From assembly GCA_035495555.1 (NCBI GenBank), contig DATJFQ010000024.1:5705-69704 (forward strand): DNA of 64,000 bases, read 5' to 3'. Below the pieces are notes generated by a model. It was not told the DNA's origin, ran no database searches, and saw only the letters and a list, made by a program, of their open reading frames with translations. Position 1 is the first letter of the stretch. Each line of letters begins with the position of its first letter. Positions 13,443-57,418 of the stretch are shown piece after piece. Origin of the DNA: Vicinamibacterales bacterium. GTDB lineage: Bacteria; Acidobacteriota; Vicinamibacteria; Vicinamibacterales; 2-12-FULL-66-21. A program made the position numbers and the translations under genes.

Positions 13443-14096
13443 ATGCACTCCGTAGAGACGATTGAGCCGTTGCTGCGGGAGCGACTCGCTGGCACGCTGC
13501 CCGGCGTCGAGGTACAGCTTCGGTTCGCCTCCGGCTTGCCGCGCAAGGGTTGGAAACCCGGCGTCTATCCAAGTGATGCCAGGGTTGCCGCCGCGCTCCT
13601 GCTTCTCTACCCCGGTCCCGAGGGACTGACGATCCCGCTCACGGTCCGCGCGAGTCACTTACGCCGCCACGCGGGTCAGATCAGCCTGCCTGGGGGGGCC
13701 GCAGAAGCTGGCGAGTCACTCGAGGCGGCTGCGCTGCGCGAAGCGCACGAAGAAATCGGTGTGCCGTCGGAGTCTGTTCGCATTCTGGGATCCCTCACGC
13801 CGGTATACGTGCTCGTCAGCGGCTTCACGCTCAACCCGATCGTGGGCATCACCGACACGCGACCTGACTTTCGCGCAGCCGCGCACGAAGTCGATCAAAT
13901 CCTGGAAGTGTCGCTCGACGACGTGCAGGACGCTTCGCGGATTCGAACGGGCACGCGCATCCGCGAGGGGGTCGCCGTCGAATATCCGTACTTCGATCTG
14001 CACGGCCATCAAGTGTGGGGCGCGACGGCGATGATTCTGGGAGAGTTCATCTCGCTGCTGCAGTCGCGGGGCGGACACAGTGAGATCGCAGATTGA
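13443..14096 (+). CDS. Nudix hydrolase, CoA pyrophosphatase-like
   Basis: Nudix box LPGGAAEAGESLEAAALREAHEEIGV, preceded by LTVRASHLRRHAGQIS as in NudL/PCD1-type CoA pyrophosphatases. Confidence 0.8.
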   Translation: MHSVETIEPLLRERLAGTLPGVEVQLRFASGLPRKGWKPGVYPSDARVAAALLLLYPGPEGLTIPLTVRASHLRRHAGQISLPGGAAEAGESLEAAALREAHEEIGVPSESVRILGSLTPVYVLVSGFTLNPIVGITDTRPDFRAAAHEVDQILEVSLDDVQDASRIRTGTRIREGVAVEYPYFDLHGHQVWGATAMILGEFISLLQSRGGHSEIAD

Positions 14097-14132
14097 TGAT
14101 TGCAGATTGATGATTGCAGATTGCTGATTGCA
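14084..14132. repeat. Heptanucleotide tandem array (GATCGCA GATTGAT GATTGCA GATTGAT GATTGCA GATTGCT GATTGCA)
   Basis: Seven contiguous 7-nt units read directly. The array overlaps the Nudix stop codon (14094-14096) and ends 9 nt before the convergent methyltransferase stop (14142). Confidence 0.95.
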
Positions 14133-31973: not shown

Positions 31974-32530
31974 GGCGCGCGCACCTCGCGCCTCGCGCCT
32001 CCCGTCTCACGCCGCGCGCCGATCCGCCTTGTCTTGCGATGGGTCCCCGCTCGGACAACTCCGCCTCCGCGCAGGCAGAGACTCCGCCTGCGCTCCGGCG
32101 GGATCTCGCCGAAGCCGCTTCGCGGCGGAGGCGGACCCGCTTCGTGGTCGGCGGCGGGAAAGACTTCGACGAGGAGCCGCCTCCGCGCGACGCGCGCGCC
32201 CGTCCTCGCCCCCATCGCTGGTGAGGCGATCGGGCTCGCGCGCCTCTCGCCTCCCGCCTCGCGCCGCGCGCCTCGCACCGCGCGCCTCCCGCCTGACGCC
32301 GCGCGCCGATCCGCCTTGTCTTGCGATGGGGCCCCCGCTCGGACAGCCCGCTTCGTGCTCGGCGGCCGGAAAGATTGTCGACGAGGAGCCGCCTCCGCGC
32401 GAAGCGGGCGCCCGTCCTCGCGCCCATCGCTGGTGAGGCGATCGGGCCCGCGCGTCTCTCTCGCCCCACCTCCCGCCTCGCGCCTCGCACCTCGCACCTC
32501 GCGCCTCGCGCCTCGCGCCTCGCGCCTCGC
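31974..32530. repeat. Composite repeat region: heptamer arrays (GCGCCTC-type; 31974-32022, 32240-32302, 32466-32530) alternating with two copies of a hairpin-forming element (32009-32239 and 32296-32465; period 287 bp)
   Basis: Read directly. ACGCCGCGCGCCGATCCGCCTTGTCTTGCGATGGG...CCCATCGCTGGTGAGGCGATCGGG occurs twice. Copy 1 carries an extra ~80-nt internal hairpin. The last array abuts the TonB-dependent receptor stop (32531). Confidence 0.9.
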
Positions 32531-38153: not shown

Positions 38154-38209
38154 CTTCGTGCCTGGTGCTCGGTGCGGGGCGCTCGGTGCGGGGTGCTTGG
38201 TGCTCGGTG
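38154..38209. repeat. Heptanucleotide tandem array (CTTCGTG CCTGGTG CTCGGTG CGGGGCG CTCGGTG CGGGGTG CTTGGTG CTCGGTG)
   Basis: Eight contiguous 7-nt units with a 14-nt higher-order period. Ends 5 nt from the stop of the hypothetical gene (38215). Lies 77 nt upstream of the HTH gene start (38077). Confidence 0.9.
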
Positions 38210-38214
38210 CGGCT

Positions 38215-48558: not shown

Positions 48559-48663
48559 CGACTGGAAACTGGCGACTGGCAACTGGCGACTGGTAACTGA
48601 AGACTGGTAACTGGAAACTGGCAACTGGCAACTGGCAACTGAAGACTGGTAACTGGCGACTAT
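48559..48663. repeat. Heptanucleotide tandem array, 15 units of NNACTGG (minus-strand CCAGTTG-type) with a 42-nt higher-order period
   Basis: Units verified one by one: CGACTGG AAACTGG CGACTGG CAACTGG CGACTGG TAACTGA AGACTGG TAACTGG AAACTGG CAACTGG CAACTGG CAACTGA AGACTGG TAACTGG CGACTAT. Lies 1 nt from the HTH gene stop (48665) and 67 nt upstream of the A2M start. Confidence 0.95.
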
Positions 48664-49471: not shown

Positions 49472-50482
49472 ATGTCGTCCCGCTGCCTCAGTTTCCACGC
49501 CGGCTATCGATGCCGGCATTCCGGCGTCTGCTGTCGGGCCGGATGGGACATCCCGTTCGAAGGGCAGGAGCGTGAAGCCGTGGAGCGTCTCCATCTCGTC
49601 CCACTCGGCGCGTTCAGAGATGGCGCCGACGTGTCGTTCGCGGCGCGCCGCGCCGACGGGGCCTGCGTCTTCCTCGAAGCCGGGAATGAACGGGTGCTCT
49701 GTGGAATTCATCGCGCCGCGGGTCAGCAGACGCTGCCGGCCGCCTGCCGGATGTTCCCGCGGGTCGCGCTTCGGGACTCGCGCGGATGGACGGTCACGCT
49801 GTCGCACTTCTGCCCGACGGCCGCATCGCTCCTCTTCGAGGACGACGAGGACGTGCAGATTGTCGACGCGCCGGCTTCACTCATCGATGTGGGACCGCTG
49901 GAAGGTCTCGATGCCGCCGACGCCATTCCCCCGCTGCTGCGCGACGGCGTGCTCATGGATCTGGAGAGCTTTTCGGAGTGGGAGTCGCACGCCATTAGGG
50001 TCCTGACTGCACGCGGCTGCACACCCGAAGCGTCGGTCTCGCGGCTGGAAGAGCTGACTGACGAGCTCGCGGGCTGGTCGCCTGGCGAGGGGGAGCTGAT
50101 CGATCGCGTTCGGACGGTTTTCATGAGCGAGCGCCCACCATGCGGTGGGGGCCTCCAGGCCTGTTCTGCTGATGCCGCCGCGGCCGGGTCGCGCGCGGCT
50201 CAGCGATGGCTCGCCGGGCATCTGTTCGGCAACTGGATCGCGTATCAAGGGCGCGGCCTGCGCACGATCGTGCGATACGTGCGCGCGTGCCTCGACGTCT
50301 TTCGCATCGAACTCGCCCGCGATGGCGACGCGCTGGAGGCGATCCGGCGCAGCGACTATCTCATCGTGCATGAATCGGATTCGCAGCAGCTCGCGGCGTC
50401 GATCGATGGACTCGCGAGGCGCGAGGCGCGAGGCGCGAGGCGCGAGGCGGGAGGCGGGAGGCGGGAGGCGGGATTTGACTAA
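49472..50482 (+). CDS. Cysteine-cluster protein, YkgJ/FliB (flagellin lysine-N-methylase)-like family
   Basis: N-terminal FHAGYRCRHSGVCCRAGWDIPFE plus ACVFLE...LCGIHR and FCPT resemble the CxxCxxCC-type zinc/iron-chelating domain. The last ~23 residues (ARREARGARREAGGGRREAGFD) are encoded by a heptamer array. Confidence 0.5.
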   Translation: MSSRCLSFHAGYRCRHSGVCCRAGWDIPFEGQEREAVERLHLVPLGAFRDGADVSFAARRADGACVFLEAGNERVLCGIHRAAGQQTLPAACRMFPRVALRDSRGWTVTLSHFCPTAASLLFEDDEDVQIVDAPASLIDVGPLEGLDAADAIPPLLRDGVLMDLESFSEWESHAIRVLTARGCTPEASVSRLEELTDELAGWSPGEGELIDRVRTVFMSERPPCGGGLQACSADAAAAGSRAAQRWLAGHLFGNWIAYQGRGLRTIVRYVRACLDVFRIELARDGDALEAIRRSDYLIVHESDSQQLAASIDGLARREARGARREAGGGRREAGFD

Positions 50483-50516
50483 TTGGTAATTGCGTAGTTG
50501 GGTAGTTGGGTAGTTG
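50413..50516. repeat. Two adjacent heptanucleotide arrays: CGCGAGG x5 + CGGGAGG x3 + CGGGATT (50413-50475), and TAATTGG TAATTGC GTAGTTG GGTAGTTG GGTAGTTG (50480-50516)
   Basis: Units verified one by one. The first array forms the 3' end of the upstream CDS, whose stop (50480-50482) opens the second array. pepT starts at 50541. Confidence 0.95.
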
Positions 50517-50540: not shown

Positions 50541-51767
50541 ATGAACGTCCTTGATCGATTTCTTCATTACGTCACCATCGATACGCGGGCGGACGACAGC
50601 TCGCAGACCTGCCCGACCACACCGGGACAACTCGAGTTGATGCACGTGCTCGACGCCGATCTGCGCGCGGTTGGACTTACCGACGTCTCGATCGACGAGA
50701 ACGGATATCTGATGGCGACCATCCCGTCATCGGTGACGCAGCCGGTGCCGACGATCGGCTTCATTGCGCACGTCGATACGTCGCCCGAGATGCCTGGCAA
50801 CGGCGTCGAACCGATCGTTCATCGTGCGTGGGACGGCTCCGACATCGTGCTGCCCGACGACCGGACGGCTGTGCTGCGGGTCGCCGACAACCCCGATCTA
50901 GCCGCGCAGGTCGGCAACGACATCGTCACTGCCTCGGGCACGACGCTCCTTGGCGCGGACGACAAGGCCGGCGTGGCGGCTATCGTGGCCGCGGCGGAAT
51001 ACCTGATGAAGCATCCGGAAGTGCCGCACGGCACGATCCGGATTGGATTCACGCCGGACGAGGAGATCGGGCGCGGCGCGAACCGCTTCGATGTGGAGCG
51101 ATTCGGCGCGACGTACGCGTACACGCTCGACGGCGGGTCGGCGGGAGAGCTGGAGTACGAGAGCTTTTCAGCCGACGTCGTCCGTGTCACGTTCGTCGGC
51201 TTCAATACGCATCCCGGGTTTGCGACCGGCAGGATGATCAATTCGATCAAAGCCGCTGCGCGATTCATCGATAGTCTGCCCGCCGGTGTGCTCTCGCCCG
51301 AGACGACGTCAGGATATGAAGGGTTCGTGCACCCCTATCATCTCGACGCGGCCGTCGATCGAACGACCGTTCGAGTGCTGCTGAGGGACTTCGTCACCGC
51401 GACGCTGTCTGACAAAGCCGAACTCATCGAGCGGGCTGCGCGCGATGCGGCGAGGGCGTTCGGTGCCACGGTGGAGATCGAGCGGCAGGAACAGTATCGC
51501 AACATGCGCGAGGTGCTCGATCACCATCTGGAAGTCGTCGACCGCGCCCGCAGCGCGATCATGCGGCTCGGACTGACGCCGATCGAGCGGCCGATCCGCG
51601 GAGGGACGGACGGCTCACGGCTGTCGTTCATGGGGCTGCCGACGCCCAACCTGTTTGCAGGCGAGCACAACTTCCACTCACGGCTGGAGTGGACGTCGCG
51701 TCAGGAACTCGAGCTCGCTGCGCGCGCAATCGTGGAAATCGCGCGAGAGTCAAACATGAATCCCTAA
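50541..51767 (+). CDS. pepT: Peptidase T (tripeptide aminopeptidase, M20B)
   Basis: Start moved to ATG 50541 (MNVLDRFLHYVTIDTRADDSS...). Contains HVDTSPE, GADDKAG, FTPDEEIG and full-length PepT-like order. Confidence 0.9.
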   Translation: MNVLDRFLHYVTIDTRADDSSQTCPTTPGQLELMHVLDADLRAVGLTDVSIDENGYLMATIPSSVTQPVPTIGFIAHVDTSPEMPGNGVEPIVHRAWDGSDIVLPDDRTAVLRVADNPDLAAQVGNDIVTASGTTLLGADDKAGVAAIVAAAEYLMKHPEVPHGTIRIGFTPDEEIGRGANRFDVERFGATYAYTLDGGSAGELEYESFSADVVRVTFVGFNTHPGFATGRMINSIKAAARFIDSLPAGVLSPETTSGYEGFVHPYHLDAAVDRTTVRVLLRDFVTATLSDKAELIERAARDAARAFGATVEIERQEQYRNMREVLDHHLEVVDRARSAIMRLGLTPIERPIRGGTDGSRLSFMGLPTPNLFAGEHNFHSRLEWTSRQELELAARAIVEIARESNMNP

Positions 51768-51924
51768 TCCCTAATCGCCAATCGTCGAATCCCTGATCCG
51801 TGAATCCTGAATCCCGAATCCCCGAATCCCCGAATCGTGATTGCTTAGCCGATATCCAGATGAGTAAGTAACTCAGCGCGCCGCACGCCGCATGCCGCAC
51901 GCCGCACGACGCGTGCCGCACGCC
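51758..51924. repeat. Two heptanucleotide arrays between convergent genes: GAATCCC-type (51758-51845, ~12 units) and GCACGCC-type (51876-51924, 7 units)
   Basis: Read directly. The first array begins inside the last codons of pepT (stop 51765-51767). The second ends at the base before the VWA gene stop (51925-51927). Confidence 0.95.
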
Positions 51925-53724
51925 TCACCTGACACGAAACGGCACAAGTGCTTGCGCGTGGGCGCTGCCGGACGCCGCGCGGAACTCGACGAGATATTCA
52001 CCCCTCGCCAGGGACGCGATGGGCAACGACGTCTCGTACTGACCGTCAGGGCGGCGCGTCAGCGGGAGATCGGCCAGGGCGACGGCTCCCTTGTTGAGGA
52101 GACGCGCCGTCGGCGCGGACGATGGCGCCAGGGTTCCGGCGAGGCCGACACGAATCACGACCCGGTCGGACCGCTCGAAGTCGTGGCCGGCGAACGGCAC
52201 CGCGGCGTCGTTCGATTCGATGTCGCGCAACTCGATTCCCGTGCGTGCACGAAAGACACGCGGCGACGCAAAGGCGATCGGCACGCGGCCGTAGTCTGGC
52301 ACCGTGACCGAGGTGGTCCGCGCGCCGAGCGAAGCGCCGCCGGTATCGGTCAGCGTCTGGCGGATATCGACCTCGCCGGGCGAGACGTCGAAGGTCGCGC
52401 TCCCGTTCACCGTGCGATCGAAAAAGAGACGACCGTCGGGTGACACGGCGCGGACCCGGATGCTGACGTCCGTCCGTGCCGATGACGGCAGCCACGCCAC
52501 CGTCATCGTGGGGTGACCTCCACCGGGTTGGGTGCCGACCCAGAGATCGCCGTCGGCCTCCTCGGGGCTCACGACGAGGGTGGAGAGCGCATGCGTGACC
52601 TCCGGCGGCACTTCTGCTGTGCTCGCCGATGCGCGTGCCGACGCGATCGCTGCCAGCGTCGGTGCGAAATAGCCGCGTCGAGCGTGGACCTCGAGGCCGG
52701 GCCGGCTCACATGCACATCGATCTTATGGAACTTGCCGTCGGCGGGATTCCTGGACGAGCTGTACCCAAGCAGGTAAAAGGCGCTGTTCTCGGTCACCAT
52801 CTGCAGGAGGCGCTTTGCCGGCGCGTTGCTGCGCACGCTTTCCGCACCCGTGTCCGCGGACACCGACATCAGGACGCCGCTCATCAGCCCGAGGCTGCGG
52901 GGATCGAAGGTATAGACGGCCGTGTTGTTCTGATTGGCCTGCCGGATGAAATCCCGCAGCCAGTCCGCCTGGTCCGCCGGTCCGCCCATGGGACCAAAAT
53001 CCTCGGTCACGAGGAGCACGGCCTTGCGCCCTTCCTTGATCGTGCCGAGAAAGCCCACCGTCGCCTCGAGCGCGGACCGCGACACCTGTGAGCGCAGTCC
53101 CTCGACGTTCCCCGCCCGATAGAGCTGCGCTTCCTCCATTGCGCTGCGCGGCGGCAGGTATACGCCTCGCCGTCCTTTGAGCTTCGCCACCGTTTCGGCC
53201 AGCGCCCTGCGATCGCGCGTGAACTCGATCGCGTCCGACGGCGTGAGCTGATCGGTGATGGCCACGAGGTCCGTCGGCCCGAACGCGTTGAGCACGAGAT
53301 CGGTCAACGCTGCACGACCGCGGATGGCGGGCTCGAACTGGTCGATGTGGTACTCGTCCCAGAAGACGACGAACACGCGGACGTCGTCGCGCGCGGCTTC
53401 CGCGTAAGCGTGCTCGCGCGAACGGATCGGCAGCGACAGGTCGTCGGTCGGTTGCCCGTCAGTCTCGAGAAACCGGAACGCTTCGATCGTTTGCGGTATG
53501 CCGTCTTCGCTGACCGCGAAGTCGTCGCGTGTGAGATCCGTGAGCGGCTTGCCGTGTTTGTCGAGGACCGTGACGTCGACGCGGACCAGGTTTGTCGCCG
53601 CGCGAAACGTCGGCTGCTGCTGAGCCGCCGGCGGCGGCGCCTGTGCGCCGAGCAGCGCCGACGCAATCAACGCCGCAGCGCCGGCCGCCAACACCGCGCG
53701 GGGAAACCACATGGGAAGTTCCAT
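51925..53724 (-). CDS. VWA-domain protein with VWFA-related acidobacterial N-terminal domain
   Basis: Signal peptide, then PTFRAATNLVRVDVTVLDKHGKPLTDLTRDDFAVSEDGIPQTIEAFRF, which is characteristic of the TIGR03436-type family (from memory), followed by a VWA-like fold. The start is at 53724 or Met 53712. Confidence 0.8.
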   Translation of the reverse strand: MELPMWFPRAVLAAGAAALIASALLGAQAPPPAAQQQPTFRAATNLVRVDVTVLDKHGKPLTDLTRDDFAVSEDGIPQTIEAFRFLETDGQPTDDLSLPIRSREHAYAEAARDDVRVFVVFWDEYHIDQFEPAIRGRAALTDLVLNAFGPTDLVAITDQLTPSDAIEFTRDRRALAETVAKLKGRRGVYLPPRSAMEEAQLYRAGNVEGLRSQVSRSALEATVGFLGTIKEGRKAVLLVTEDFGPMGGPADQADWLRDFIRQANQNNTAVYTFDPRSLGLMSGVLMSVSADTGAESVRSNAPAKRLLQMVTENSAFYLLGYSSSRNPADGKFHKIDVHVSRPGLEVHARRGYFAPTLAAIASARASASTAEVPPEVTHALSTLVVSPEEADGDLWVGTQPGGGHPTMTVAWLPSSARTDVSIRVRAVSPDGRLFFDRTVNGSATFDVSPGEVDIRQTLTDTGGASLGARTTSVTVPDYGRVPIAFASPRVFRARTGIELRDIESNDAAVPFAGHDFERSDRVVIRVGLAGTLAPSSAPTARLLNKGAVALADLPLTRRPDGQYETSLPIASLARGEYLVEFRAASGSAHAQALVPFRVR

Positions 53725-53749
53725 CGGCAGAATAGCGCGTATTGCAAGA

Positions 53750-53961
53750 GCGTTGAATCCCCAATCCCTAATCGCCGATCCTCGGATCCCTGATCCTCAA
53801 ATGCCTGATCCTCGAATCCCTGACCCCGAATCCCCGAACCCCTGATCGCGAATCCGCGCATCCCGAATCGCGGATCCGGCGATGCTGGATGCGGGATTCG
53901 GGATGCGGGATGTGGGATCGGGGATTCGGGGATCGGCGATAAGGGATAAGGGATTCAACGC
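53750..53961. repeat. 212-nt inverted heptamer-array hairpin (C-rich GAATCCC-type arm and complementary G-rich GGGATTC-type arm) closed by a perfect 12-bp clamp
   Basis: GCGTTGAATCCC (53750-53761) and GGGATTCAACGC (53950-53961) are exact reverse complements. The interior units are largely complementary. The right clamp overlaps the xthA stop (53955-53957). Confidence 0.9.
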
Positions 53962-54710
53962 TTTTCCTCGAAGGTCGCAACGACCGGCGCATGGTCGCTG
54001 GTTCCGACATCGCGCTGGACGACGCATGAGCGTACGCGATCGAAGATCGACTGGCTCGCGATGACGTAGTCCAGGCGCCAGCCGATATTGCGCTGCCGCA
54101 TGTTCCGCCACGGCGCCCACCACGTGAACAGGCCGTCATTGTCGGGTTCGAGCGCGCGTCCTGTGTCGACCAGCCCGTGCGACAGCAGTTGCTCGAGGAG
54201 TGCGCGCTCCTCCGGCAACTGTCCGATCGCGCGCGGCTTGCGTTCCTTCGGATGTACGTCCAGGTCCGTTCGCGCGATGTTGATGTCGCCGCAGATGACG
54301 GCCGGGCGGCCCATCTGCTGGAGGTCCGCAGCGAACTGGTCGAAGGCCTCCAGAAACCGCATCTTCGCTGGAAAGTCCTTGCCCCCGTTCGGCACGTATA
54401 CGGATGCGAACGTCGTTCCATCGACGACGGCCGTGACGATGCGGCTTTCGTAATCGAACGACGGGTGCTCGAATGCTGGGCGCTCGGGCGAGAAGCGGCG
54501 GCTGATGTGCAGCGCGACGCCCGAGTACCCCTTGCCGCCGTGCCAGTAGCACCAATAGTCCTGAAGCTCGCAGAGCCACACGGGAAGCTGATCGAGCGCC
54601 GCTTTGGTTTCCTGCAGGCAGATGACGTCAGGCTGTTCGCGGTCGATCCATTCCTGCACCTGCGCCTGCCGAGCGCGAATGCCGTTCACGTTCCACGTGG
54701 CGATCTTCAT
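53955..54710 (-). CDS. xthA: Exodeoxyribonuclease III
   Basis: Start moved to ATG 54710 (MKIATWNVNGIRARQ...PDVICLQETKA). C-terminal DVGTSDHAPVV. ExoIII/APE1-family layout. Confidence 0.9.
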   Translation of the reverse strand: MKIATWNVNGIRARQAQVQEWIDREQPDVICLQETKAALDQLPVWLCELQDYWCYWHGGKGYSGVALHISRRFSPERPAFEHPSFDYESRIVTAVVDGTTFASVYVPNGGKDFPAKMRFLEAFDQFAADLQQMGRPAVICGDINIARTDLDVHPKERKPRAIGQLPEERALLEQLLSHGLVDTGRALEPDNDGLFTWWAPWRNMRQRNIGWRLDYVIASQSIFDRVRSCVVQRDVGTSDHAPVVATFEEKR

Positions 54711-54772
54711 CCATGTCGATCTTACCGCTCCGGATGCCTCGTTGAGTTCGGCAGCCTGAAGCCGCGCAGCGG

Positions 54773-57418
54773 TCAATCATGGCGCAGCGCGAGCGCGGGA
54801 TCGATGCGCAGCGCGCGAATGGCAGGAATGACGTGTGCCGCGACCGCGACCGCAACGAGCGTCAACGCGGCCCCGCCGAACGCTAGAGGATCGAGCGGGC
54901 TGACGCCGAACACGAGCGACCCGAGCAGCCGCGTCGTCAGCACCGCGCCTGCGACGCCGGCAGCGAGCCCCGCCGCGAGCAGCGTAACGCCTTTTGACAG
55001 GAGGAGGCGCAGCACCTCACGTGACGTCGCCCCGAGCGCGAGCCGGAGACCGACCTCGCGCGTGCGCTGTGAGACGCCGTACGCGACGAGCCCGTAAAGG
55101 CCAACCGCCGCCAGCAGCAGGCCGACCGCGGCAAAGCCGGCGAGCAGCCGCATTACGAACAGTCGTTCGCCGATCGCGCCGTTCACCAGCGCCGCGACCG
55201 ACGCGGCCCCGTACACGGGCACCGAGGGGTCGAGCTGACGCACGGCGGCAATTGCCGATGGCGCAAGCGCCGCCGCATCCGACGACGACTTGACGAGCGC
55301 GACAAGAAACGAATCGGTCGATTGCGATTCGGGCATGTAGACGGCCGGAATCGGCGGGGCGGCAAGGTCTTCGTGGCGAACGTCGCCGACGACGCCGACA
55401 ATCGTGCACCAGGGCCCACGGACGGCGCTCCCGATGCGAACGACCGATCCAATCGGATCGGCAGTTCCCCAGACCAGCCGCGCGGTTGATTCCGAAACGA
55501 CCGCAACGGGCTGTGAGGTCTCACCGTCTTCGGCTGTGAAGAACCGCCCGCGTTTCAGCGGAATACTCATGACCGAGAGGTAGGCCGGCGTGGTCCCGTA
55601 GCGCTGGATGCACGGATCGTCCACCGCATTCGGCTTCATGCGACCCTGGACATGGAAACCGCGGCAGTCGAAATCGCCGCCAAATGGAATCTGGTCGGCG
55701 AGCGCCACCGCTGCGACGCCTGGGAGCGCCCGCAGGTGCTCGATCGCCTGCGTCTGATACGCGCGAACCGCCGGATCCTCCGCGTATGTGCGTCCGCCGA
55801 GGATGATTCGCATCGACAGGATCCGGTTGGGGTCGAAGCCTGGATTGACGCGCGCGAGCGACGTGACGGACCGCAGCATGACGGCGGCGCCCGCAAGAAG
55901 CGTCAGCGCGATCGCGAGGTCGGCGACAACGAGGAGCGCGCGCACCCGTCCGGCTCCCGCGGCCGTCGTGCGCGAATCGACGGCGAGTTGGCCGCGGAGG
56001 TCGTCCCGCGATGCCTGGCGTATAGGTGCCAGGGCGACGAGCGCAGCCGCGACGATCACGACTACGCACGCGAAGAGCGCGACGCGCAGGTCGATTCCGA
56101 CCTCGCCGAGCCGCGGCAGCGTCTGCGGCGCCACGGCCGATACCCCACGCATCGCAATCGCCGCGAGCAGCAGCCCGCACGCCCCGCCGATCGCACTGAG
56201 CAGCGCGGTTTCGGTCAATAGCTGCGCCGCGATTCGCCGCCGGCCGGCACCGAGGACGACCCTCAACGCCAACTCGCGCCGCCGCAGCTCCGAGCGTGCA
56301 AGCAGGAGGTTGGCGACGTTCGCGCACGCAATCACGAGGACGCACGCGACCGCGCCCAGCAACAGGAGCAGTTGCGGGCGGGCGCCGGCGGTAATCGCGT
56401 CGCCCAGCGGCACGACGGCAACCGACCCCGGTTCGTACTGTGTCGGATACTGTGCGCGAAGCTGTTCGTGAACCGAGGTCATCTCGGCGGCGGCCGCAGC
56501 CGCCGACACACCGGGACGCAGCCGTCCGAATGCGCGCAGGTGACGGCAATCGCGGCAGCTGTCGCCCACGCCGACCGCGTATCCGAGCGGCGCCCAAATC
56601 TCGGCAGCCGTGTAGTACTTCGCAGAAATCAACGGCGGGAACGATGCCGGCATGACGCCGACCACGCGATACGGCAGGTCGTTCATCACGACCGTGCGCC
56701 CGACAATCGTCGGATCGCCGCCAAACCGCCGCCGCCACAGGCCGTCGCTCAGGACCACCTCGTGCCACGCGTCCGGGCGATCTTCCTCCTGCGTGAACGT
56801 GCGACCGAGAGCGGGGCGGACGCCGAGCATCTCGAAGTACGACCAGGTCACACGTACGCCCGCCAGCCGCTCCGCTTCGCCGTTGACCACGAGGGTTGGC
56901 TGAAAGGACCGCATCACGGCCAGCGATTCAAACGACCGGCTGCGCGCCTCCCAGTCGATGAACGTGGCGTAACCCACGCGTTCCGGATCGCCTGCCCTGG
57001 TCCGTTCGCCCAGCGAGACGAGCCGATCAGGGTCCGCATACGGGAGGGGCCGCAGCAGGACCGCGTCGACAACGGAGAAGATCGCGGTGTTCGCGCCGAT
57101 GCCGATCGCGAGCGTCAGGACCGCGGCGGCCGTGAACCCCGGCGCGCGGCGGAGCATGCGGAGTCCGTAGCGCAGGTCCTGCCGCAGCGCGTCGACAAAC
57201 GGCAGCGATCGCTGATCCCGAACGGCCTCGAGCGCCTGCACTTCGCCTCCCAGCTCGAAGCGCACCGCGCGGCGCGCCTCCTCAGCCGTCAGGCCCCGCC
57301 GCAGATGAAACGCTTCGAGTTCATCGCGATGAGCGGCCAGATCCGCGGCAATTTCCCGGTCCGAACGTCCACGGCCCAGCGCCCCCGCGATTCGCGACGC
57401 CAATTCACGGAGGTTCAT
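54773..57418 (-). CDS. ADOP-family duplicated permease with N-terminal prefix domain (ADOP6)
   Basis: 881 aa. An 80-aa prefix (MNLRELASRIAGALGRGRSDREIAADLAAHRDELEAFHLRRGLTAEEARRAVRFELGGEVQALEAV...) precedes DLRYGLRMLRRAPGF...GIGANTAIFS. Its ATG overlaps the PadR4 stop (ATGA). Confidence 0.9.
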   Translation of the reverse strand: MNLRELASRIAGALGRGRSDREIAADLAAHRDELEAFHLRRGLTAEEARRAVRFELGGEVQALEAVRDQRSLPFVDALRQDLRYGLRMLRRAPGFTAAAVLTLAIGIGANTAIFSVVDAVLLRPLPYADPDRLVSLGERTRAGDPERVGYATFIDWEARSRSFESLAVMRSFQPTLVVNGEAERLAGVRVTWSYFEMLGVRPALGRTFTQEEDRPDAWHEVVLSDGLWRRRFGGDPTIVGRTVVMNDLPYRVVGVMPASFPPLISAKYYTAAEIWAPLGYAVGVGDSCRDCRHLRAFGRLRPGVSAAAAAAEMTSVHEQLRAQYPTQYEPGSVAVVPLGDAITAGARPQLLLLLGAVACVLVIACANVANLLLARSELRRRELALRVVLGAGRRRIAAQLLTETALLSAIGGACGLLLAAIAMRGVSAVAPQTLPRLGEVGIDLRVALFACVVVIVAAALVALAPIRQASRDDLRGQLAVDSRTTAAGAGRVRALLVVADLAIALTLLAGAAVMLRSVTSLARVNPGFDPNRILSMRIILGGRTYAEDPAVRAYQTQAIEHLRALPGVAAVALADQIPFGGDFDCRGFHVQGRMKPNAVDDPCIQRYGTTPAYLSVMSIPLKRGRFFTAEDGETSQPVAVVSESTARLVWGTADPIGSVVRIGSAVRGPWCTIVGVVGDVRHEDLAAPPIPAVYMPESQSTDSFLVALVKSSSDAAALAPSAIAAVRQLDPSVPVYGAASVAALVNGAIGERLFVMRLLAGFAAVGLLLAAVGLYGLVAYGVSQRTREVGLRLALGATSREVLRLLLSKGVTLLAAGLAAGVAGAVLTTRLLGSLVFGVSPLDPLAFGGAALTLVAVAVAAHVIPAIRALRIDPALALRHD

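Follow-up and report, generated by a model that had tools for sequence, protein, structure and literature searches.

The spacer between xthA and a VWFA-domain gene in a Vicinamibacterales genome is probably a gene-less copy of a dispersed palindromic heptamer-repeat element

Introduction

Between xthA and an acidobacterial VWFA-domain gene, in a 64-kb window (the whole stretch of DNA analysed here) from a Vicinamibacterales bacterium metagenome-assembled genome (MAG), short C-rich repeats face an array of their G-rich complements. The window lies on contig C24 (DATJFQ010000024.1) of assembly GCA_035495555.1, a 4.43 Mb genome of 66% G+C in 123 contigs, with an estimated completeness of 99.3%. 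The locus raises a simple question. Did this structure evolve in place as a regulatory signal for its two neighbours, or is it a copy of something that occurs elsewhere in the genome? A first-pass annotation, made from the sequence alone, favoured the former: the array was read as a hairpin that could act as an xthA terminator or stabiliser and as a 5' element of the VWFA gene, with G-quadruplex (G4) folds competing with the duplex. Here, we compare the locus with its counterparts in relatives, with the other repeat arrays of the genome and with repeat systems described in other bacteria.

Results

The spacer folds as one long palindrome

The flanking genes were correctly named in the first-pass annotation: matches to TIGR00195/TIGR00633 and TIGR03436 identify exodeoxyribonuclease III and an acidobacterial VWFA protein (Table 1). 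Their spacer had been described as a single hairpin-forming inverted heptamer array, and both the palindrome and a folding energy beyond that of shuffled controls agree with this. The 12-nt clamp reported at its base, GCGTTGAATCCC (53750-53761), is indeed the exact reverse complement of GGGATTCAACGC (53950-53961). The perfect match actually reaches 13 nt (AGCGTTGAATCCC), and the imperfect palindrome spans 53746-53796 and 53915-53965, with 51-nt arms that are 86% complementary. The earlier count of about 18 C-rich heptamers facing about 10 G-rich heptamers in unequal arms is right by unit spacing. The C-rich arm (~130 nt) has 14 clear ATC-cored units and 3-4 degenerate ones, the G-rich arm (~76 nt) has 11 units spaced by 7-8 nt, and TRF reports repeats of period 7, 14 and 21 across 53755-53954.

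Minus-strand (sense) RNA of the element has a predicted folding energy of -135.8 kcal/mol; dinucleotide shuffles give -90.7 +/- 5.1 (z -8.9), and none of the 200 matched the element. The plus-strand DNA folds at -79.8 against -43.6 +/- 3.8 (z -9.5; no shuffle as good). A comparison of this kind had been proposed with the original observation, and its outcome is far better than the controls for both RNA and DNA. Searched against Rfam, the element gave no rRNA match; the matches that did appear, to miRNA hairpins of plants and animals, were below threshold and reflect just the length of the stem. As the first-pass annotation had placed them, the right end covers the xthA stop codon (53955-53957, minus strand) and the left end lies 25 nt from the listed VWFA start at 53724. 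Comparison of the VWFA N-terminus with that of relative L001 suggests that translation really begins at the second ATG (53712).

Table 1. Features of the xthA-VWFA locus and of a related half element in the window
Feature	Position	Strand	Evidence or remarks
xthA, exodeoxyribonuclease III, upstream gene	53955..54776	-	PF03372; TIGR00195/TIGR00633
Acidobacterial VWFA-domain gene, downstream	51925..53724	-	TIGR03436 acidobact_VWFA, 154 bits
Last two sense codons and stop of xthA (AAG CGT TGA), within the element terminus	53955..53963	-	Ends ATFEEKR-stop, against ATF[DN]V-stop or similar in six syntenic relatives
Whole palindromic heptamer-array element, gene-less ("solo"), GAATCCC>GGGATTC family	53746..53965	.	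Inverted repeat; fold z; matches at at least 12 other loci
Left terminal inverted repeat (family head), AAGAGCGT-TGAATCCC CAATCCC TAATCGC CGATCCT CGGATCCC TGATCC	53746..53800	+	Aligns with 19 other arm termini
Right terminal inverted repeat (family head, minus-strand reading), AAAAGCGT-TGAATCCC TTATCCC TTATCGC CGATCCC CGAATCCC	53911..53965	-	Head-pattern match C24:59631-59660 = window 53927-53956
C-rich arm, ~17-18 units of 7-8 nt, core ATCC	53755..53880	+	TRF; unit spacing
G-rich arm, 11 units of 7-8 nt, core GGAT; holds the G4 motif run 53893-53931	53881..53957	+	TRF; unit spacing
Half element, solo left arm with GAATCCC head; supplies the last codons and TAA stop (51765-51767) of an M20 peptidase gene	51757..51837	+	Head match C24:57462-57491

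Repeats are hard to assemble, and in a MAG of 123 contigs a palindromic repeat could have been collapsed or mis-joined at this site. Such an artefact is scarcely credible here. The element sits 53 kb into a 78-kb contig, between coherent genes whose order recurs in six relatives. The xthA frame enters it cleanly and stops inside, and similar elements recur at a dozen unique loci as well as across many independent assemblies.

Syntenic relatives have hairpin-free spacers

The relatives of the xthA protein all come from Vicinamibacterales (Acidobacteriota) metagenome bins. Six contigs with 68-72% identical xthA (L056, L059, L057, L063, L064 and L079) bear the labels of Betaproteobacteria, Bifidobacterium breve, Gemmatimonadota or Acidimicrobiia MAGs, and these are probably mis-binned acidobacterial contigs.

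The xthA-VWFA gene order is kept in 6 of the 78 relatives' xthA loci. The six spacers are 24-143 nt long, contain no hairpin and fold no better than their shuffles (z -0.2 to +1.8). Two of them are short (~27-35 nt), and one of these two (in L009) contains a Shine-Dalgarno sequence, an arrangement that implies co-transcription of xthA and VWFA. Because all six spacers are so short and hairpin-free, the VWFA gene is probably read through from xthA. If VWFA depends on read-through, a strong terminator at this site would silence it.

The end of the xthA protein differs as well. It reads ATFEEKR-stop here and ATF[DN]V-stop in relatives, and the codons concerned lie inside the terminal repeat of the element. 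Thus, the element has replaced the last codons of xthA and supplies its TGA stop. The exact insertion point is placed by this C-terminus only; the relatives, including the nearest (L001), have at most 88% protein identity, and their non-coding DNA cannot be aligned. Other short-period arrays, with many unit types, are found just downstream of xthA in 23 of the 78 loci, so gene 3' ends in the order Vicinamibacterales have been occupied repeatedly by different families.

A conserved head unites dispersed copies

BLAST searches and inspection place the GAATCCC>GGGATTC family at 12 or more loci in the genome, 12 being a lower bound. Alignment of 20 arm termini (mean column identity 77%) defines a non-periodic head of ~55 nt, GAATCCC TnATCCC TnATCGC CrATCCT CGAATCCC TnATCCG (c)GAATCCC. 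The head resembles a degenerate heptamer array, but the order of unit variants within it is fixed in all copies: a CGC unit stands third and is followed by a CCT unit and then by an 8-mer. Slippage acting independently at each site cannot yield such an order, and the copies are therefore homologous. The clamp recognised in the first-pass annotation is the tip of this head, which in a subfamily is extended by AGAGCGT, and between the heads the family members consist of (C)GAATCCC units, in variable number, that face mirroring GGGATTC units.

A 30-nt head pattern has 20 matches in this genome (G000) and 0 in a genome of the same genus (G001), so the family has multiplied in this lineage. The same pattern has just three marginal matches, with 2 mismatches, in 19 other relatives; a reversed control pattern has 0. 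Given these copies and the hairpin-free relatives, the xthA-VWFA region is probably one gene-less copy of a palindromic repeat element dispersed through the genome, rather than a regulatory structure with its origin at the locus.

Within the GAATCCC family, arms that belong to the same element resemble each other more closely (86.4%) than arms from separate elements do (82.3%; permutation p 0.001); 20 variants are common to both arms and 53 occur on one arm only. The flanks of eight complete family copies contain no target-site duplication. The half element 2 kb from the xthA-VWFA element (Table 1) has no partner arm and shows no folding of its own (z -1.4). An array of (CGCCGCA)x7 at 51879-51928, on the other strand, overlaps the 3' end of the VWFA gene, so the convergent spacer 51768-51924 holds two unrelated heptamer arrays. 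At C65:4302-4485 of G000 there is a GGGATC...GATCCC pair in reversed order (G-rich first), placed in a coding region by the simple gene calls used here; it is the sole reversed case seen.

Heptamer hairpins are a genome-wide class at gene 3' ends

Over the whole genome, TRF returned 2,480 rows, of which period 7 is the commonest (638), followed by 14 and 21. Merging gave ~1,028 array loci, equal to 1.2% of the genome. Gene context was taken from a simple codon-usage ORF caller (2,928 genes, 83% of the genome), by which 573 array clusters are non-coding. Ninety-eight of these clusters fold as one long hairpin, and by folding energy the xthA-VWFA element ranks about 14th among them. Measured from the base of these hairpins, the median distance is 1 nt to the stop codon upstream (IQR -7 to +9) and 24 nt to the following start. 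Among intergenic regions, the hairpins occupy 6.7% of those between convergent genes, 3.8% of those between tandem genes and 1.7% of those between divergent genes. With this geometry, a clamp that covers the stop codon, a gap of 25 nt before the downstream start and a filled spacer are normal for the class.

The hairpins fall into families that include YTCCCAA>TTGGGAR, CCAGT>ACTGG, ATTGCAG>CTGCAAT, GAATCCC>GGGATTC, CGATG>CATCG and an octamer family. The order of the arms is constant within a family in 65 of 65 classifiable solo hairpins, and the ends are sharp and conserved; the ATTGCAG family, for instance, always starts with GAATTGCAG and ends with CTGCAATTC. The other hairpin families also have patchy distributions across relatives. 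The most abundant, AAYTCCC>GGGARTT, has 245 pattern matches in G000 and 145 in its congener G001. The window itself contains scattered heptamer or octamer arrays of other families (CGCGAGG, GGTAGTTG, ACTGGCA, CGCGCCT/CCTCGCG, GATTGCA, GGTGCTC and AGTTGCGT), at 50413-50516, 48559-48661, 32237-32530, 14084-14132, 38164-38211 and 39585-43.

The idea of an "all-frame stop", in which a stop-containing 7-mer closes all three reading frames, was rejected. Only 15 of 196 element ends have one within 35 nt; this is enriched over random sequence (0.16%), though it is not general.

A terminator evolved in place is unlikely

A pattern scan of 53500-54200 found no terminator-like or promoter-like site, and on the sense strand no U-tract follows the stem, the tail being CUCUUGCAAUACG. 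A strong terminator is thus unlikely on the sequence. The earlier proposal of a locus-specific xthA terminator or VWFA 5' element does not survive this result, taken with the dispersed copies and the hairpin-free relatives.

A broader version of the proposal would make the element a home-grown stem-loop at the 3' end of xthA, with arms enlarged in place by replication slippage and kept by selection as a transcript end. The unequal numbers of units in the two arms do show slippage in place, hairpins of the class are over-represented at the 3' ends of genes (convergent over tandem over divergent), and varied short-period arrays follow xthA in the 23 relatives' loci described above. We nevertheless consider this origin improbable. 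The non-periodic head, 55 nt of which are common to 19 other termini at unrelated loci, is beyond what independent slippage can explain, and neither a U-tract nor a terminator-like site marks a transcript end. Furthermore, the stem is just 25-37 nt from the VWFA start with no promoter-like site, and syntenic spacers of 24-35 nt with a Shine-Dalgarno sequence imply co-transcription. A copy of a dispersed element remains our reading of the site.

G-quadruplex motifs appear incidental

The eight tracts of three to four G reported for 53893-53952 are present. Canonical G4 motifs lie at 53893-53931 (plus strand) and 53818-53842 (minus strand), and the G4Hunter scoring proposed in the first-pass annotation gives a mean of 1.45 for the G-rich arm. 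The arms of this element are thus G4-prone, as claimed, but this is not a property of the class, in which a motif occurs in only 29 of 98 hairpins. Because the other 69 have none and whole families are without G tracts, G4 potential seems incidental to the element family.

These motifs, on both strands, would be the raw material for a G-quadruplex or i-motif switch in which the G-rich arm, as DNA or RNA, alternates with the duplex and regulates xthA or VWFA. The related GGGNATC repeats form G4 in vitro (PMC4692102), and in the minimum-energy fold the longer arm leaves ~50 nt of G-rich RNA unpaired. We regard such a switch as very unlikely, since the 69 motif-free hairpins have the same geometry and the ATTGCAG, CCAGT, CGATG and AAAGATC families lack G3 tracts altogether. 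In addition, the C-rich arm would be made first on either strand, so that the G-rich arm would meet a waiting partner, and the predicted duplex is very stable.

PF05635 genes lie between inverted arrays of the same kind

A sister copy at C109:22527-23308 has GAATCCC-family arms with the same head, set ~550 nt apart, and these enclose an ORF of 153-159 aa. The predicted protein belongs to PF05635 (E 7e-19) / TIGR02436, the "23S rRNA intervening-sequence protein", a four-helix bundle. The only gene-bearing copy of the GAATCCC family thus carries a PF05635 gene, not a transposase gene. We know of no catalytic activity for the PF05635 / S23p protein, which to our knowledge is a widespread family of unknown function.

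The genome encodes nine PF05635 genes, and 8 of the 9 have inverted arrays of 6-8-nt units on both sides; the ninth (on C61) is cut by the contig end and has a left array only. No two of the nine have arms of the same family, and the CCAGT, ATTGCAG, CGATG, octamer and GTGCT families among them also have solo hairpins. Had the genes inserted at random into hairpins already present, the chance of nine of them landing in nine different families would be ~2 in 10,000, based on approximate family sizes. The order of the arms is that of the solo copies at C109, C25, C77, C37, C68 and C13, and at C77 the end sequences are too. We take the link between solo hairpins and PF05635 cassettes to be real.

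The association extends to relatives. Of 40 PF05635 genes sampled from 17 related genomes, 37 have an inverted-arm score above that of every shuffle (22 of 40 pass a strict cut), and a further set of PF05635 genes from relatives is armed in 8 cases out of 8. Proteins that resemble each other tend to have similar arms (Mantel r 0.15, p 0.0002). One genome contains a pair of paralogs, 87% identical, that have the same arms in different contexts. L088, L091, L097, L098 and L100 have a PF05635 gene at the same position (shared flanks, 47-59% protein identity), with arm units GCGGGA, TGGGGC, CGGAGG, GGCGAG and TGCGGG; the arms differ and yet are complementary within each genome, so both must have changed together. 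Comparison of paralogs and orthologs therefore indicates that arms turn over while the two sides stay matched.

Three of the nine genes in this genome look decayed (C37:37198-37314, C13:34819-35037 and C77:104628-104906), being two short fragments and one weak match, and their arrays are intact. They fit a series from full cassette to solo hairpin, as do the loops at C111 (160 nt) and C42 (80 nt).

The xthA-VWFA element has no ORF, and neither blastn nor tblastn detected a PF05635 remnant in solo copies, so it is the shared ends that speak for descent from a cassette. No PF05635-bearing AAYTCCC copy was found among the genes examined in G000, G001, G006 and G011. We also found no transposase gene that shares the ends of the elements, and no reverse transcriptase in the 99.3% complete assembly. 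The genome has two Y1 transposase (PF01797) genes, both without flanking arrays. A link to RAYT/IS200 elements was rejected, as neither gene adjoins an array.

Tentatively, each PF05635 gene could be the "master" of a private hairpin family. The protein would recognise its own arms, as a DNA cruciform or an RNA stem, and promote their copying or maintenance, and the hundreds of gene-less hairpins, the xthA-VWFA element among them, would be the non-autonomous offspring. This scheme would also account for how rRNA intervening sequences arose, and we put it forward as a possibility of rather low probability.

Discussion

Origin and likely effect of the element

We read the xthA-VWFA element as similar to intervening sequences (IVS-like) and as probably once mobile. 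We infer that it reached its site by a copy-and-insert process and that slippage later changed the number of units in each arm, which would be the reason why the arms are now unequal (130 vs 76 nt). Pairing between the arms would have been maintained in the meantime, the arms of one element sharing private variants.

In an xthA-VWFA co-transcript, the element would form a long imperfect RNA duplex. A duplex of such length is a classic RNase III substrate, and RNase III is encoded in the genome. Most likely, the duplex would be processed by RNase III or would stop 3' exonucleases, and the two messages could thereby be separated or stabilised; termination would be less likely than processing or protection. 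Equally, the element could be selfish DNA, close to neutral, whose presence directly behind a stop codon is tolerated. Our best guess is thus that the xthA message is processed at the element or has its 3' end protected by it, or that the element has no function.

The hairpins of this soil acidobacterium go beyond simple-sequence repeats, being copies of discrete families with conserved ends. Such a copy can take the place of the final codons and the stop of a housekeeping gene and do no harm. If the tie to PF05635 is causal, the elements would be a mobile or self-maintaining class without a recognisable transposase, and they would offer a concrete test of the role of an S23p/Avd-like protein outside diversity-generating retroelements.

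Comparison with known systems

Intrinsic (Rho-independent) terminators consist of a short GC-rich stem-loop followed by a U-tract, and the element has neither a terminator-like site nor a U-tract. Like MITEs such as Correia, ERIC and Nezha, it is short and non-autonomous, shares terminal inverted repeats with its family, has been amplified in one lineage and is present or absent among relatives. Unlike MITEs, it shows no target-site duplication and has no transposase-bearing parent with the same ends, and its body is a tandem array that changes in length.

REPs are palindromes of 20-40 nt with GTAG or CGTC heads, and their associated gene encodes a Y1 transposase (RAYT). Like REP/BIME-RAYT systems (REPtrons), the hairpins described here are multi-copy extragenic palindromes just after genes, with co-existing families and one flanked "own" gene per family. 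Their arms are private in the REP/BIME style, each PF05635 gene having its own. They differ in the head, (AGAGCGT)GAATCCC..., in arms of 76-130 nt, in Y1 genes that are unflanked and in an associated protein without known catalysis. If the master-gene scheme were true, this would be a REP/RAYT-like system built on a protein without a known catalytic fold.

Heptanucleotide repeats are familiar from Cyanobacteria, where STRR sequences form tandem arrays, mostly direct, that are abundant in the intergenic DNA of particular lineages. We know of no report of a conserved terminal head in cyanobacterial STRR, and our search found no literature on heptanucleotide repeats in Acidobacteria.

ORF-bearing intervening sequences with an S23p/PF05635 gene occur in the 23S rRNA genes of Coxiella burnetii and Leptospira (PMC4990558). 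That of C. burnetii has an S23p ORF, a 28-bp terminal stem and variable-copy heptamers beside the ORF, and is excised by RNase III (Warrier et al. 2016, PMC4990558). Terminal inverted repeats, a long stem and heptamers are all found in the elements described here, and the sister copy on C109, and only that copy, has the four-helix-bundle ORF in the loop. Unlike an rRNA intervening sequence, the xthA-VWFA element lies between protein-coding genes, has no ORF and has arms made of 76-130 nt of repeats.

A further parallel is with GGGNATC heptamer repeats, known as GGGAATC in Xanthomonas and GGGGAYT in Nostoc (Rehm et al. 2015, PMC4692102). These are over-represented in non-coding DNA near stop codons and rare between divergent genes, and each Xanthomonas genome has 70-75 inverted pairs, potential stem-loops that compete with G4 (PMC4692102). 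The elements described here are likewise 7-nt tandem arrays in facing pairs, with a tract of three to four G and an AT-containing spacer in each unit, and they too are non-coding, near stops and rare between divergent genes by our simple gene calls. They differ in phylum (Acidobacteriota) and in unit, which is mainly GGGATTC, GGGATGC or GGGATAA, only two GGGGATC units fitting the GGGNATC consensus. They differ further in the long non-periodic terminal inverted repeat, by which the copies are known to be homologous, and in the many co-resident families without G tracts. The link to PF05635 is not described in the GGGNATC paper (PMC4692102).

Inverted intergenic heptamer arrays with stem-loops that compete with G4 are therefore already in print for another phylum (Xanthomonas, Nostoc). 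What is new here is the conserved head of a family that was not found in a congener, the comparison of filled and empty xthA-VWFA sites, with the altered end of xthA, and the matching of individual PF05635 genes to particular families of solo hairpins.
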